A stretch of 64,000 nt of DNA from Spirochaetota bacterium (GTDB taxonomy: Bacteria; Spirochaetota; UBA12135; COTS27; CBDBHE01). The stretch spans positions 96,001-160,000 of the forward strand of contig CBDBHE010000002.1 of the NCBI GenBank assembly GCA_965205605.1, read 5' to 3'. The position numbers and the translations under genes were made by a program. This document shows, piece by piece, positions 2,106-7,497 of the stretch (its first letter is position 1; each line of letters begins with the position of its first letter). The notes below the pieces were generated by a model. That model was not told the DNA's origin. It searched no databases and worked only from the letters and a program-made list of their open reading frames with translations.

Positions 2106-2534
2106 TTAATTAATTTTTTTTTCTATTTCATTTAGTCGTTGTTTAGAAAGAGTTTTAGCAGGTAAAATATCAGCATAATCTCTGATGACTTTATTAAAAA
2201 ACTGACTTGCTAATTTATAACGTTTTTGTATTAGATAACAAAAGCCAATTTCATAATGAGCCCATGCCAAATTTTTTTTATAAAGATCTTTTTTATGGGA
2301 AAATTTTTCTATAATTTTTTTATTTTCTTTGATAGTTTTAGAATACGCTTTGTGATTATAGTAATATTTTGCTTTTTCTTCATACAAACTTGGTGTTTTT
2401 TCATTAATGTAGCTACTTTTCTCTATTTTTGGAGACTTGATAGTTGTACAGTTTTGGTGAAAAAAAGCAAAAACTAATATAAAAAAAAAATTAGTTTGAA
2501 GAAGAGCTTTCATCCCCATAAGAATAAACTTCAT
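2106..2534 (-). CDS. TPR-repeat lipoprotein
   Basis: Hydrophobic N-terminus ending in a Cys (HQNC); TPR motif WAHYEIGFCYLIQKRYKLASQFFNKVI; the true start may be a downstream Met. Confidence 0.7.
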   Translation of the reverse strand: MKFILMGMKALLQTNFFFILVFAFFHQNCTTIKSPKIEKSSYINEKTPSLYEEKAKYYYNHKAYSKTIKENKKIIEKFSHKKDLYKKNLAWAHYEIGFCYLIQKRYKLASQFFNKVIRDYADILPAKTLSKQRLNEIEKKIN

Positions 2535-2790
2535 CTTTTATTGGCAAGCTTTTTCTAAGCTCTCTAATATATTCTTTTTCATCATCTCCCATGGGCTCAT
2601 AAGAATTACAAAAATCAATACTTCGTCTAGCTGCTGTAAAATATTTATAATATTTAATTTCACCTATTTTTTTTTTCCATTTATCTTTTTGGCAATGAAT
2701 TCGAAGTAAATACTGATTGCTAATAATAGCTGATTTTCTAACGACTAAACAATTTTTGCAATTAGAACAAAATATTTTATCTGCAGGCAT
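2491..2790 (-). CDS. Cys-rich conserved hypothetical protein (possible Zn-binding)
   Basis: CSNCKNC ... C ... C; resembles from memory a small protein conserved in spirochetes (LR.RC...WKKK.GE.K.YKYFT.ARR). Confidence 0.7.
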   Translation of the reverse strand: MPADKIFCSNCKNCLVVRKSAIISNQYLLRIHCQKDKWKKKIGEIKYYKYFTAARRSIDFCNSYEPMGDDEKEYIRELRKSLPIKDEVYSYGDESSSSN

Positions 2791-2863
2791 TTTAATTCCT
2801 ATTTAATTAATTTTAATAAAGTATTATACAAGTAAAAAAAATAATTGTCAAAATATATCTTTT

Positions 2864-4537
2864 TTAAGAGTCAAGAAAATCTTGTGCCATTTGTTTGCTT
2901 TTTTCATCAAATTCTTTTCCGGTAAGCATTCTTGCTATTTCTATTATTTTTTGATTTTCATCTAAGATATTAATATTAGTATTAGTTTTATTATTTTCTG
3001 TTTTTTTACTAATTTTAAAATGAGTGTTAGCAAACTTAGCAATTTGAGCTAAATGAGTAATGACTAATACTTGTCTATAATGACTAATATTAGAAAGCTT
3101 GTTTCCTATATGAAGAGCGGTTGCTCCTCCAATTCCAGCATCAATTTCATCAAAAATCATCACAGGAATGTCTTCTTTTTCGTTTAAAAGTGATTTTAAA
3201 GAAAGCATAATACGAGAGATTTCTCCCCCTGAGGCTATTTCTTTAAGTCTTCTAAAGGGAGCTTCTGGGGCTGCTTGATATAAAAACTCAATATAATCGA
3301 TTCCATTTTCATTTAAGATTGGTTTAGGTTCATTGGCTTCATGAGAGTTTAGATCGATAGCTAATTTAGAGGTTGTCATTCCTAAAAAACTAATTTCTTC
3401 TTGAATTTTTTTTTCAAAAGTATCTTTTCCATTTTTTCTTCTTTTGTGAAGTTCTTGAGCTAAAGAAAAGACTTCATTTTCTAGTTTTATTTTTTCCTTT
3501 TCAAATTTTTCTTTTTCGATATGACTATCTTCTAAAAATAAAAGTTTTTTTTTAGATTCTTCAAGTTTTTTTTGAAGCTCCAAGAGGCTTAAAGCATACT
3601 TGCGTCTTAAGCTTTCAGCTTTAGCTAACTTGTTGTTAAGTTGGTCGATAGATAGGCTTTGATTGTCAAGGGTATGTGAGAATTTTTTTTCTTCTTGATT
3701 TTCTATTTCTTCAAGTAAATCGATAGCTTGTAAATATTGTGTTTTCAGATTTTTCAATTTTTCGTTAGAGGTGTTAAGAGCTTCGATTGAATTTTTTTGT
3801 TTGTAAAGTTTGGGTAAAATTTCATTTTTTAAAACAAAATAGTTTTCTTGTAAAATTTGATCAAAATTTTCTTTTTGTTCTAATTTTTTAAGCTGATCTT
3901 TAAAAGAATTGTATTCTTCTTCACTAATTAGATTGCCTTCTAGTTCTTTAATATTAAAAAGAAGGAGCTCTTTTTCTTCTTGAATTTTTTTTTCTTTTTT
4001 TTGTATGGCTTCGATTTGATAATTGATCAACTTATAATCTTGGTAATTTTTTTGGAAAATTTTGTTTAAATTATCTAGATTGAGGAATTTATCATAGAGT
4101 TCAATATGAGCATTAATATTAAAAAGACGTTGGTTTTGATGTTGGGCATGAATATCAATAAGATTATAAGCGATCTGTTTTAAAGTTTTAATATTGGTTA
4201 AATGATCATTAATAAAACATTTTGATTTACCTTCTCGGTTCATTTCTCTTCTAAGAGAAAGTTGATGATTCTTAATTTTTATTTTTAATAATTTTTCAAC
4301 TTTTTGTTTAATATTAGAAAGTGGTTTTAGATCAAAAGTTGAAATAACTTTTAAAAAATTTTTTCCTGGTTGAATAAAATCAATGGAAATTCTTTCTCCT
4401 AAAGTTGTATTTAAAGCTCCTAAAAATATAGACTTTCCTGCCCCTGTTTCTCCTGAAATAACATTGAGTCCTTTTGATAGTTGAATCACTTCTTCTTCAA
4501 TAAAGATAAAATTGTAAATAGCAATTTGGTTTAGCAT
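2864..4537 (-). CDS. recN: DNA repair protein RecN
   Basis: Walker A SGETGAGKS, coiled coil, signature ASGGEISRIML, Walker B IFDEIDAG, ITHLAQIA. Confidence 0.97.
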   Translation of the reverse strand: MLNQIAIYNFIFIEEEVIQLSKGLNVISGETGAGKSIFLGALNTTLGERISIDFIQPGKNFLKVISTFDLKPLSNIKQKVEKLLKIKIKNHQLSLRREMNREGKSKCFINDHLTNIKTLKQIAYNLIDIHAQHQNQRLFNINAHIELYDKFLNLDNLNKIFQKNYQDYKLINYQIEAIQKKEKKIQEEKELLLFNIKELEGNLISEEEYNSFKDQLKKLEQKENFDQILQENYFVLKNEILPKLYKQKNSIEALNTSNEKLKNLKTQYLQAIDLLEEIENQEEKKFSHTLDNQSLSIDQLNNKLAKAESLRRKYALSLLELQKKLEESKKKLLFLEDSHIEKEKFEKEKIKLENEVFSLAQELHKRRKNGKDTFEKKIQEEISFLGMTTSKLAIDLNSHEANEPKPILNENGIDYIEFLYQAAPEAPFRRLKEIASGGEISRIMLSLKSLLNEKEDIPVMIFDEIDAGIGGATALHIGNKLSNISHYRQVLVITHLAQIAKFANTHFKISKKTENNKTNTNINILDENQKIIEIARMLTGKEFDEKSKQMAQDFLDS

Positions 4538-4543
4538 CGCTAA

Positions 4544-5800
4544 TTATATTTTTAAAAAAAATTTTCTTAATAATTCGATATTGTGTTTGTGCCCTGTTTT
4601 ATTAGCGGTAACCTTACAACGAAAAGGGTGCTTACTTAGAGAAAAATCACCTATAATGTCTAAAATCTTATGTCTTGCAAATTCCTTTTCAAACCTCAAA
4701 TTAGTATTAACTACTTTAGCTTTATCAATTAAAAGAGAATTATCAAGACTAGCTCCTTGTGCTAGTCCAATAGCTTGAAGAGTTTTGGTTTCTTCTAAAA
4801 ATCCAAAAGTTCTTGCAGGAGCAATTTCTTTTTTAAATACTTTAGGTGCTTCTTTACTAAGGTCAACTTTATAAATTTGATCTTTTTGAATTTTGTTAGG
4901 GTAAGAAAAAGTATATTCGATTTTAAAACCATCATAAGGTTCAATACGAATCCATTTTGTGTTATCTTTAGGATCTTTGTATTCGTAAGTTTTTTTTATT
5001 TCAATGGTTTTTAAGGTGTCTTCTTGTTCAACGATGCCTGTTTTTTCTAAAAGATCACACCACTGGATTGAAGAACCATCTAAAATAGGAATTTCTTCAT
5101 TGACTTTAATACAAATGTTACAAACCCCATAAACTTGAAGTGTGGCTAAAAGGTGTTCGACACAAGAAATAGAAAAATTTTTATTTTTGAGAGTGGTTGC
5201 TTGATTTGTTGAGATGACATTTTCAAAAGAAGCTTTTAATGATTTACCAGATGAGATTTCTTCAAAAATAATGCCACTATTGATAGGAAGTGGGATTAAA
5301 ATCACCCCTGTATTATTTCCTTTGTGAATTCCTTTTCCAGTAATAACAGCATTTTTAGCGATTGTTTTTTGCTTAATGGGAGTTTTTTTTATAGGGATGG
5401 TTTGATAATTGATTGATTTTGATGAGTGGGTGTTTTGATTAGTTTGTAAGTGTTCTGAAATTTTAAATAAAAGAGATTCTCTACTGAATGGTTTTTCTAA
5501 AAAATCGTTGGCTCCATTTTTGGTAACTTCAATTGTTGAGTTTGTGTTAATGTGACCTGAGATAATAATAATAGGGATATGGGCCCATTTTTTTTTAATT
5601 TCTTTTAATACTTGAAGTCCATCTTTTTCTGGCATCCAAATATCTAAGAAAATCAAATCTATTTGATGAGGATTAATTATCGAATCAATTTTTAAAGGAT
5701 TAGTACAATGAATGCTTTCATATTCAGAGCCTTTTAAAATATTAGCGATTGATTTTTGAATTAATTGTTCATCATCTATAATTAAAATTTTTTTTTTCAT
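4544..5800 (-). CDS. lpxC: response-regulator receiver domain fused to UDP-3-O-acyl-N-acetylglucosamine deacetylase LpxC
   Basis: N-terminal REC domain (IIDDE, FLDIWMP, IISGH, LEKPF); C-terminal LpxC (QKTI..GKGIH, VEHLLA, PILDGSS, IAPARTFGF, RHKILDIIGD, TGH). Confidence 0.92.
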   Translation of the reverse strand: MKKKILIIDDEQLIQKSIANILKGSEYESIHCTNPLKIDSIINPHQIDLIFLDIWMPEKDGLQVLKEIKKKWAHIPIIIISGHINTNSTIEVTKNGANDFLEKPFSRESLLFKISEHLQTNQNTHSSKSINYQTIPIKKTPIKQKTIAKNAVITGKGIHKGNNTGVILIPLPINSGIIFEEISSGKSLKASFENVISTNQATTLKNKNFSISCVEHLLATLQVYGVCNICIKVNEEIPILDGSSIQWCDLLEKTGIVEQEDTLKTIEIKKTYEYKDPKDNTKWIRIEPYDGFKIEYTFSYPNKIQKDQIYKVDLSKEAPKVFKKEIAPARTFGFLEETKTLQAIGLAQGASLDNSLLIDKAKVVNTNLRFEKEFARHKILDIIGDFSLSKHPFRCKVTANKTGHKHNIELLRKFFLKI

Positions 5801-5864
5801 TTTGTTTATCTAATTCACTAAAAAAACTTTACTTGATTTATAAGGGTAAACTTGTGCTTTTAGT

Positions 5865-6548
5865 TTGCTCTTTCATTGTTTCCAAACTAATAATATAATG
5901 AGAAGTATTTTTATGGTAAGCTTACAAATATCTTTTTTGAAAATTCCTATTAAATTAATTTCAGAAAATGATTTAATGAATATCATTAAAAAATCTATTA
6001 AAAATAAAAAAAAAATTTCATTATACCCTCTTTATTTTAAAAATATCATCCCCTTTTTGTTTTTTAAAAATTATAGAAACTATCTTAGTTCTTTAGATAT
6101 TATTTATTCGGCGAGTTCTTTTTTATCTTTTTTGATTTTAATTTTTTTTAAAAAAAAATTTTCTTCAATTAATCCAACTCAATTAATGCTTAATACTATT
6201 GAAACTTTAATTCCTAAAAAAGCTTCTTTTTTTTTTGTTGGCATTAGTTCTAGTCAATATAAAAGTTTACAACATTATTTAAAAATATTTTTTCCTGAAA
6301 TATTTTTAAAAGGTTCTATTGATTATCGACTTTTAAAAAGTCGTTTATCAGATTCAATTGAACTCATTAAAAAAATGCAACCAACTGTTCTTTTTGTAAG
6401 TGGACAATTCCCTTCCAAGTGTGCTAAGGATGTTCAAAAAGAATTGATTTTAGATAAAAAAAAAGAACCTACAGTTATTTCTTTTTGTTCAAAAGGTTTA
6501 GAAAGATATAGTAAAATTAAAACGAAAAATAAGAAAAAATTTTTTTAA
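5865..6548 (+). CDS. WecB/TagA/CpsF-like glycosyltransferase (divergent)
   Basis: Loose match to the TagA/WecG layout (YRNYLSSLDIIY, SFFFVG, IKKMQPTVLFV); true start probably ATG 5898 or 5913. Confidence 0.5.
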   Translation: MLFHCFQTNNIMRSIFMVSLQISFLKIPIKLISENDLMNIIKKSIKNKKKISLYPLYFKNIIPFLFFKNYRNYLSSLDIIYSASSFLSFLILIFFKKKFSSINPTQLMLNTIETLIPKKASFFFVGISSSQYKSLQHYLKIFFPEIFLKGSIDYRLLKSRLSDSIELIKKMQPTVLFVSGQFPSKCAKDVQKELILDKKKEPTVISFCSKGLERYSKIKTKNKKKFF

Positions 6549-6591
6549 AAAAAGCTCACTCAATTTTTAATAGAAAAATACTTAAAAAACA

Positions 6592-7497
6592 ATGTTAACT
6601 AATTTTTTGGATTTTTATCAAAATCTTCCCAATCGGGTTAACCCTTCTATTATTAGCTTTTATGGCTTTGAGCTTCGTTGGTATAGCCTAGGCTATATTT
6701 TCTCATTTCTTTTGTTTTGGGCTCTTATTTCTTATCGAATAAAGAAAAATGAAGCTGCTTTTAAAATTACGCTTAAAGATATTGAAGATTCTATGTTTTA
6801 TCTTTTTTTAGGGGTTATTTTAGGGGGGAGATTGGGGTATGTTATCTTTTATGATTTTTCTTATTATATTAAAAATCCTATTTCTGTTATTTTTCCTTTT
6901 AGTTTTGAAAATGGGTTTAAATTTACGGGGATTTCGGGAATGTCTTATCATGGGGGTGTTTTAGGGGTTATCGTTTCGATATTACTTTTTTGTAAAAAGA
7001 AACAAAAGTTTTTTTTCGATGTGATGGATTTTTACTTGCCTTGTATTCCAATAGGTTATTTTTTTGGTAGACTTGGTAATTTTATGAATGGTGAACTTTA
7101 TGGAAGAATTACTGAAAGTCCTTGGGGAATGTATTTTTATACACAATATATTATTGATGATCAAAAAATCAAAAAAGTTTTTACAGAATTAAGACACCCA
7201 AGTCAATTATATGAAGCTTTTTTTGAAGGATTAGTTTTGTTTTTCTTTCTCTGGTTAATTAGAAATAATAAGAAATTAAGGAAAAGTTTTATTTCTGCTT
7301 TTTATCTAATCGGTTATGGGTCCTTTCGTTTTTTCATTGAATTTTATAGAGAGCCTGATAAACAATTTGTAAATCATGGACAAGAAATTGGGACTGCTTT
7401 TTGGTTTTTAACAATGGGACAAATTTTATGTTTTTTTATGGTTTTTATTGGTCTTTTCTTAATTTTTTTTAGGTTAAAAAAAGCTAAAACAATATGA
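6592..7497 (+). CDS. lgt: prolipoprotein diacylglyceryl transferase
   Basis: LRWYSLGY, LGGRLGYVIFY, GMSYHGG, GRLGNFMNGELYGR, HPSQLYE, RFFIEFYREPD, TMGQIL. Confidence 0.97.
   Translation: MLTNFLDFYQNLPNRVNPSIISFYGFELRWYSLGYIFSFLLFWALISYRIKKNEAAFKITLKDIEDSMFYLFLGVILGGRLGYVIFYDFSYYIKNPISVIFPFSFENGFKFTGISGMSYHGGVLGVIVSILLFCKKKQKFFFDVMDFYLPCIPIGYFFGRLGNFMNGELYGRITESPWGMYFYTQYIIDDQKIKKVFTELRHPSQLYEAFFEGLVLFFFLWLIRNNKKLRKSFISAFYLIGYGSFRFFIEFYREPDKQFVNHGQEIGTAFWFLTMGQILCFFMVFIGLFLIFFRLKKAKTI

Follow-up and report, generated by a model that had tools for sequence, protein, structure and literature searches.

The committed step of lipid A synthesis is carried out by LpxC, an enzyme targeted by antibiotics. 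Among response regulators, CheB, PleD/WspR and RpfG each combine a receiver with an enzyme domain through a flexible linker, an arrangement that provides a model for inhibition being lifted or set by phosphorylation. Here, we describe a gene that joins a receiver (REC) domain to LpxC, located in a 64,000-nucleotide stretch of the genome of a Spirochaetota bacterium (contig C2, positions 96001-160000; hereafter the window). With the CheB-type regulators the fusion shares the order of receiver, linker and enzyme in one chain, a comparison by mechanism and not by homology; it differs from them in having the zinc deacetylase of lipid A synthesis as its output, and docking of the receiver on the enzyme is conjectural here. 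Response regulators with enzymatic output are known, and LpxC as such an output is undescribed in the papers that we found. The initial annotation of the window knew of no functional study of such a protein, and we likewise found no paper on a receiver-LpxC fusion, or on LpxC as a response-regulator output, in the accessible literature (subscription journals and supplements lay outside the search). The words "receiver", "fusion" and "fused" occur zero times in a 2025 review of lipid A regulation (PMC12444477).

According to the same review, what is known of LpxC control is chiefly regulated proteolysis in enterobacteria, and a few other groups use other routes. The FtsH/LapB/PbgA pathway of Escherichia coli acts post-translationally on the same committed step, and the fusion may be its analogue in balancing lipopolysaccharide (LPS) against phospholipid. 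The E. coli C-terminal tail is, however, without counterpart here, no match to the LapB zinc ribbon was found, and a built-in receiver is proposed instead. The review also covers NtrYX, which represses lpxC transcription in Rhodobacter sphaeroides and Caulobacter crescentus, and an R. sphaeroides NtrYX mutant has about nine-fold more lpxC transcript and two-fold more LPS (PMC12444477). Two-component control aimed specifically at LpxC is also found with DVU2934, a response regulator of Desulfovibrio vulgaris whose single mapped target is lpxC (PMC3333781), but this is a separate DNA-binding regulator acting at a promoter.

The fusion resembles the NtrY/NtrX systems of Brucella, R. sphaeroides and C. 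crescentus in its receiver, with LDIWMP and SGH, and in the NtrY-type kinase that adjoins it in other genomes. NtrX, in contrast, is a DNA-binding regulator of dozens of genes built from REC, AAA+ and helix-turn-helix (HTH) domains, whereas the fusion joins the receiver to an enzyme. The receiver had been called NtrX-type, which agrees with its best NCBIfam receiver-containing model (NtrX, NF051870) and its best solved relatives (4d6x and 5m7n). The protein as a whole was rejected as an NtrX, with 87.4 bits against a cut-off of 600, a match confined to amino acids 3-131, and no AAA+ or HTH domain found by Pfam in its 418 amino acids. LpxC also occurs naturally joined to another domain in the bifunctional LpxC/FabZ (NF009667), where the partner is a dehydratase and not a signalling domain. 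This assignment was also rejected (200 bits against 465; profile positions 3-298 of 464, in the LpxC part only). We consider it probable, though not firmly so, that the fusion is an enzymatic response regulator that places lipid A synthesis under two-component control.

Architecture of the fusion

The gene is a single uninterrupted open reading frame (ORF), as the initial annotation had read it; it starts with ATG and can now be assigned to the minus strand (Table 1). The N-terminal part matches PF00072 Response_reg (E 5.9e-27; 94.5 bits, cut-off 30.2; profile positions 1-109 of 111) and the C-terminal part PF03331 LpxC (E 5e-83; 279.1 bits, cut-off 27; profile positions 1-266 of 268). The NCBIfam lpxC equivalog model TIGR00325 gives 243.5 bits against a cut-off of 187.25. 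Every receiver motif named before was located: the acidic pair DD at 9-10, FLDIWMP at 51-57 with the acceptor Asp53, IISGH at 79-83 and EKP at 102-104. The individual residues D9, D10, D53, S81 and K103 are all present, together with the aromatic switch residue F100. The accompanying description of a short linker followed by an LpxC with all zinc and catalytic residues held in the Pfam match, in the alignment with E. coli LpxC (4mdt) and in an alignment of 120 homologues. EH, HKILD and TGH stand at 215-216, 377-381 and 402-404, and VEH, ARTFGF, RHK.LD, IGD and GH are identical to 4mdt at the aligned columns. The zinc ligands (His, His, Asp) and the catalytic Glu and His of E. coli LpxC are numbered E78, H79, H238, D242 and H265.

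An AlphaFold2 model built with 36 homologues (mean predicted local distance difference test score, pLDDT, 89.2; predicted template-modelling score, pTM, 0.71) has a (beta-alpha)5 receiver of five strand-helix pairs at amino acids 3-118. In the linker, amino acids 121-128 have a pLDDT below 50, and the family consensus has no majority residue in this stretch. Foldseek superposed the LpxC domain of the model on solved LpxCs with template-modelling scores of 0.84-0.95, normalised to the target, and root-mean-square deviations of 1.5-2.4 Å. The matches listed run over 277-288 alignment columns; since the LpxC domain by itself is about this long, no solved chain seems to span both domains. By profile, residues and fold, the protein is an LpxC, and by the same three kinds of evidence it carries a REC domain. 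Its LpxC domain is predicted to be active as a deacetylase on UDP-3-O-acyl-GlcNAc.

The assembly comprises 1,686,894 bp in 8 contigs and is 91% complete, with a G+C content of about 28% (24-32% within the window). A second, stand-alone lpxC was among the things that the initial annotation suggested looking for; there is none in the genome, where the fusion is the sole LpxC match. Further steps of the pathway are represented by an LpxA above the cut-off, an LpxD-like hexapeptide gene beside LpxB and two WaaA-type genes.

The C-terminus of the protein bears on the way in which the receiver might act. The chain stops four residues beyond the LpxC match, at the position aligned to residue 275 of the 305-residue 4mdt chain. 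It thus lacks about 30 residues at the end of E. coli LpxC, whose C-terminal tail is reportedly required for degradation by FtsH. With the same input, the receiver could control stability. Phosphorylation would uncover or mask either a degradation signal or a surface that binds an adaptor, and FtsH, Lon, ClpXP or a similar protease would adjust LpxC levels, in place of the enterobacterial C-terminal degron. Since that degron is missing, stability control is the main rival of an effect on activity. The genome has no match to the LapB zinc ribbon, and the disordered linker could be a site of protease engagement. However, no protease or adaptor is conserved beside the gene, and receiver-controlled proteolysis usually runs through separate adaptors and not through a receiver on the substrate. 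We regard stability control as unlikely on balance, while noting that a C-terminal degron is likewise missing from LpxC in some other groups (PMC12444477).

Spread and ancestry of the fused family

Similar fusions in other lineages had been mentioned in the initial annotation, which proposed a survey of the Response_reg plus LpxC architecture. They exist, are annotated simply as LpxC, and occur in many phyla. Our sample of Spirochaetota held 41 genomes including the window's own. A full-length fusion was found in the window's genome and in all eight other genomes of its order (42-51% identical), and in two genomes of another spirochaete family (G021 and G035; 36% identical). In twenty genomes the match was confined to the LpxC part, in two of these with in-frame stops, and nine gave no match over this part. 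In the remaining genome, G009 of the same class, receiver and LpxC occupy two overlapping frames on the minus strand of contig C718 (L011): the receiver frame at 2207-2719 (170 amino acids) and the LpxC frame at 1477-2433 (318 amino acids) overlap by about 227 nt. Either this is a natural split of the fusion, or it reflects a single indel error in a metagenome-assembled genome (MAG) that is fragmented (770 contigs, 80% complete).

The best 120 database matches all contain both Pfam domains. Their named sources are Spirochaetota, Candidatus Binatia and Acidoferrales, the closest named ones being Spirochaetota. In a MAFFT alignment of these 120 homologues, D9, D10, D53, W55, S/T81, G82, H83, K103 and P104 of the receiver are conserved in 119-120 sequences and F100 in 118; the column of Asp53 holds Asp in 119 rows and a gap in the remaining one. 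E215, H216, T331, F332, H377, K378, D381, D385 and H404 of the LpxC domain are conserved to the same extent (119-120 of 120).

A scan across phyla with one genome per species returned at least 590 pattern matches, 586 of which encode a relative. The best 80 (L018-L097) were analysed, and some of the other 506 may be stand-alone LpxCs. All 80 are full-length fusions. They come from Binatia, MAGs labelled "Deltaproteobacteria", Syntrophobacter, Syntrophorhabdaceae, Thermodesulfovibrionia and Nitrospirae, and from Thermoanaerobaculia, Holophagae, Aminicenantes, Margulisiibacteriota, Omnitrophota, Chrysiogenia and Bdellovibrionales. The fusion is the sole LpxC match in five of five fusion-bearing genomes of other phyla. 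In the phylum of one of these loci (G043, L060, Thermoanaerobaculia) there is one LpxC match in each of 41 genomes (40 of 40 without G069). The LpxC frames in these genomes are mostly of stand-alone size, and four besides that of G043 measure 439-706 amino acids, a size that fits a fusion.

This conservation bears on the trivial explanation that an assembly error or frameshift has joined two separate genes. Such errors may not be foreign to the assembly, in which a kinase gene on the same contig is split over two frames. The same in-frame fusion is nevertheless present in all eight genomes of the order and in the 80 loci of other phyla, and this, as the decisive evidence, effectively refutes an artefact, to which we assign a negligible probability. 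Data from sequencing runs point the same way; the initial annotation had called for raw reads over the linker. Contig pieces from run X2 cover 30 of 30 bins of positions 4300-6000 and show no insertion or deletion over the gene, one piece (5348-5501) spanning the linker DNA without a gap. Run X2 may derive from the source sample and is therefore not independent; run X1 covers only three of the 30 bins.

A longer version of the protein was found in 109 database clusters of 733-773 amino acids, in which a receiver and LpxC are combined with an AAA+ domain of the sigma-54 type and, in some, with HTH_8 as well. Named sources are Nitrospinota, Nitrospinae and Nitromaritima, and some JGI entries carry the label NtrX. 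With P0048 added, the set amounts to 110 proteins of about 735 amino acids. The order receiver, AAA+, LpxC is kept; LpxC EH and HK.LD are present in all 110 and a Walker A-like motif in 107, while GAFTGA occurs in none, and an AAA+ domain without GAFTGA is the pattern of NtrX. The long form is thus like the fusion described here in its receiver motifs, its intact LpxC residues and the placement of its LpxC in the same clade; it is unlike it in having kept the NtrX-like AAA+ module, and is known from database entries only.

The relationships were examined in a quick IQ-TREE phylogeny of 110 LpxC domains. It combined 36 of 117 short database forms, 10 spirochaete fusions and 18 of the 110 long forms with 18 spirochaete and 28 acidobacterial stand-alone LpxCs from genome searches as outgroups. 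The shorter database homologues were fragments of at most 228 amino acids and unusable as stand-alone outgroups; L144, the split G009 gene and loci L018-L097 were left out. All 64 fused LpxC domains fall in one clade (Shimodaira-Hasegawa-like approximate likelihood ratio test, SH-aLRT, 98), from which the two groups of stand-alone LpxCs are separate. The earliest branch of this clade is the G021/G035 pair, followed by the clade of the window's order (22 rows, support 99), and the long forms (support 83) are sister to short forms of the Binatia type. The window's fusion has a drifted composition and a long end branch of 0.63. As the fused clade is separate, the spirochaete fusion does not derive from the sampled stand-alone spirochaete LpxCs; judged from this tree, it belongs to a distinct fused lineage common to several phyla. 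A single origin of the fused LpxC is indicated, not proven, with outgroups from two phyla only. The free tree nests the long forms among the short ones. Constraining the short forms to monophyly costs 12.85 log-likelihood units and is not rejected by the approximately unbiased (AU) test (p-AU 0.198), which supports neither a short-first nor a long-first order.

Candidate kinase partners and possible control of LpxC

The initial annotation saw no cognate kinase in the window, and indeed there is none, HisKA and HATPase_c matches on contig C2 lying at 66-70 kb. In other genomes, the gene context is more telling. ORFs around the 80 loci were clustered, and the 67 loci whose upstream flank exceeds 2.3 kb were searched for kinases by phmmer. 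In 34 of these, the gene immediately before the fusion, in the same orientation, encodes an NtrY-type kinase of about 750 amino acids; 31 were assigned by an automatic rule (distance below 300 nt) and three (L022, L032 and L041) on inspection. The upstream kinase of L018 has NtrY_N, HAMP, PAS, HisKA and HATPase_c domains by Pfam. Together with the conservation of the family, this adjacency renders more plausible the central proposal of the initial annotation, namely that phosphorylation controls LpxC activity or stability.

It also bears on the idea that the receiver no longer signals and persists as a constitutive module for folding, dimerisation or localisation, a relic of an NtrX-LpxC ancestor. 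Loci with no adjacent kinase, in the window's order and elsewhere, would fit this idea, as would the drifted composition and long end branch of the window's fusion. A receiver released from signalling should, however, lose its acceptor-site residues, which are near-invariant across the 120 homologues along with Phe100, and the frequent proximity of an NtrY-type kinase would be left without explanation. We find a relic improbable.

Information might also flow in the reverse direction, with LpxC reporting the occupancy of its substrate or product to the receiver. As a sink for phosphate, or as a competitor, the receiver would then adjust the signal that NtrY sends to a separate transcription factor. 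The long form, where LpxC hangs on a whole NtrX-like regulator, lends itself to such a scheme, and the window's genome has a sigma-54 regulator with no adjacent kinase. Several findings speak for LpxC as the output instead. The short form has no DNA-binding domain, and the enzyme, being the sole LpxC with its catalytic residues intact, is the obvious output. Furthermore, another NtrC-family regulator lies within 8 kb in only two kinase-adjacent loci (L032 and L048), each time with a small kinase of its own, which leaves 33 of about 35 such loci with no other regulator nearby. Reverse flow therefore appears very improbable to us, more so than a relic.

The initial annotation had also suggested looking for an NtrY-like kinase in the genome, and an unlinked one of NtrY type is present on contig C7. 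The genome contains seven receiver domains and five HisKA matches. Three kinases have an NtrB-class H-box, AHEIKNPL, and lie on C7, C5 and C2 (Table 1). The C7 kinase has an N-terminal part that reads as transmembrane from its sequence. Its H-box, AWQEVAMKIAHEIKNPLTPLKLAT, is the closest of the three to the near-invariant H-box of 33 fusion-adjacent kinases, AWREVARRIAHEIKNPLTPIQLSA. In G021, the neighbour of the C5-type kinase orthologue is a regulator with GAFTGA that shares 50% identity with the sigma-54 regulator at C1:47084-48418 of the window's genome. Pairing the C5 kinase with this regulator leaves the C7 kinase partnerless, here as well as in G021 and G035. Whole-receiver similarity leans weakly towards the partners of NtrY-type kinases (201-247, versus 167-185 for partners of C5-type kinases). 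The orphan NtrY-type kinase on C7 is thus the best candidate for the partner of REC-LpxC.

Upstream of the C7 kinase lies psd, the gene for phosphatidylserine decarboxylase (PF02666, E 2e-58), which ends 2 nt before the kinase start; the pair occupies C7:498365-500989 on the minus strand (L014:4363-6991). By tblastn, psd adjoins the orthologous kinase in all eight genomes of the order as well as in G009, whereas it does not in G029 and G015. The two genes probably share a transcript in this class of spirochaetes.

Two other signalling genes of this genome deserve mention. The NtrB-class kinase on C2, about 26 kb before the start of the window, has its HisKA domain in one frame and its HATPase in the next, which may be due to a homopolymer miscount. 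At C7:198667-201453, a 929-amino-acid protein with a CheA-like kinase core is followed by a CheY-like receiver of 118 amino acids; by eye, the N-terminal half of the larger protein resembles an ammonium-transporter membrane domain.

If the fusion works as an enzymatic response regulator, Asp53 would receive its phosphate from a membrane histidine kinase of the NtrY type, and the phosphorylated receiver would alter cellular LpxC activity and so determine how much lipid A precursor flows into the pathway. An effect on catalysis is the likeliest mechanism, either through intramolecular inhibition and its relief, as in CheB, or through dimerisation of the receiver. In the window's genome the kinase would be unlinked, the 589-amino-acid protein behind psd being the best candidate. 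Our guess, by analogy, is that phosphorylation lowers LpxC output, because alphaproteobacterial NtrYX represses lpxC transcription. The architecture, the intact residues, the single gene copy, the conserved fusion and the adjacent kinases of other phyla are observations. What we infer is phosphotransfer, which kinase acts in this genome, and what phosphorylation does and in which direction.

Several observations weigh against this scheme. About half of the 67 loci have no adjacent kinase, mostly those from Thermoanaerobaculia, Holophagae and other Acidobacteriota, and no kinase adjoins the fusion in the window's genome or its order. The assignment of the C7 kinase rests on elimination and on the likeness of its H-box, and fusion-adjacent NtrY-type kinases match C5 and C7 about equally in tblastn (93-130 bits). 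In G029 and G015, two spirochaetes that lack the fusion, the C7-type orthologue is part of an arrangement of DUF4390, kinase and sigma-54 regulator, the latter with GAFTGA. Since C7-type orthologues pair with such a regulator there, the C7 kinase may serve another regulator here. The direction of control is a guess, and phosphorylation control as such is argued from sequence and gene context. Contact between receiver and LpxC was not shown by complex prediction or other computation: amino acids 1-122 against 140-418 gave ipSAE values of 0.10 and 0.09 (mark 0.32) in runs made without controls, which speak neither for docking nor against it. The linker is predicted to be disordered, which implies that there is no rigid coupling between the domains, and the covalent link would be dispensable if the split in G009 is real. 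Finally, LpxK (PF02606) was not found at E 0.001 or better in this genome, which is only 91% complete. The gene may sit in the absent 9% or be too divergent for detection.

Gene neighbourhood and significance

The features of the locus and the three candidate kinases are collected in Table 1. The recN-like ORF downstream of the fusion is conserved in position and N-terminal likeness in all eight other genomes of the order (nine of nine with the window's own). No terminator-like site was found within positions 2400-6700, and recN and the fusion are probably co-transcribed. A promoter scan returned 31 sites against 21.5 expected, and promoter and terminator scans are alike uninformative in this AT-rich DNA. 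On the other side of the presumed promoter region lies a divergent ORF with a weak WecG/TagA/CpsF match below the cut-off, followed by lgt, which makes the neighbourhood envelope-related. In unrelated lineages the fusion has DNA-repair genes in its vicinity: recN in the window's order, and in other phyla yebC-ruvC-ruvA-ruvB, which precedes the kinase in about 20 of the 80 loci. This may be coincidence.

Table 1. Coordinates of the REC-LpxC locus (positions in the window) and of candidate kinases (positions in the contig named)
Feature	Location	Strand	Details and basis
REC-LpxC fusion gene	4544..5800	-	418 amino acids, stop codon at 4544-4546; ORF list with translation, Pfam, NCBIfam
Receiver (REC) domain, amino acids 5-113, NtrX/NtrC type	5462..5788	-	PF00072; NtrX best NCBIfam receiver match; AlphaFold2 model
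Asp53 codon, predicted phospho-acceptor within FLDIWMP	5642..5644	-	Sequence; homologue alignment
Linker, amino acids 114-143, low complexity, predicted disordered	5372..5461	-	pLDDT; family consensus
LpxC deacetylase domain, amino acids 144-414	4559..5371	-	PF03331; 4mdt alignment; model superposition
recN	2864..4537	-	6 nt downstream of the fusion, same strand; ORF, SMC_N match
Intergenic region, presumed promoter	5801..5864	.	Between the fusion and the divergent WecG-like ORF; ORF map
Weak WecG-like ORF	5865-6548	+	227 amino acids; WecG/TagA/CpsF E 5.5e-4, 20.2 bits (cut-off 27.4)
lgt	6592-7497		After the divergent WecG-like ORF
C7 kinase	C7:498365-500131	-	589 amino acids; HAMP, HisKA, HATPase; best NCBIfam model LIC_11548 family
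C5 kinase	C5:69151-70329		393 amino acids; AtoS-like
C2 kinase	C2:69334-70262		Split over two frames

To the family, the window adds a spirochaete branch, an unlinked orphan NtrY-type kinase behind psd and a conserved downstream recN. The psd-kinase pair, present in every searched genome of the order and in one more of the class, hints that the signal concerns the balance of membrane lipids. A more far-reaching possibility, which we put forward tentatively and with some doubt, is that REC-LpxC and an NtrY-type kinase constitute a phosphorelay devoted to the balance between LPS and phospholipid synthesis in several phyla. This would be the two-component counterpart of the PbgA-LapB-FtsH circuit of E. 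coli, with the alphaproteobacterial link between NtrYX and lpxC as its descendant or parallel.

The family is uncharacterised, and any biochemical result on it would be new. The fusion offers a simple in-vitro route to post-translational control of LpxC, by comparison of its activity with and without phosphorylation. In the manner of a Rosetta stone, it ties two-component signalling directly to this first committed reaction of the lipid A pathway in many species of several phyla, and suggests that the connection between NtrY and LpxC is old and widespread.

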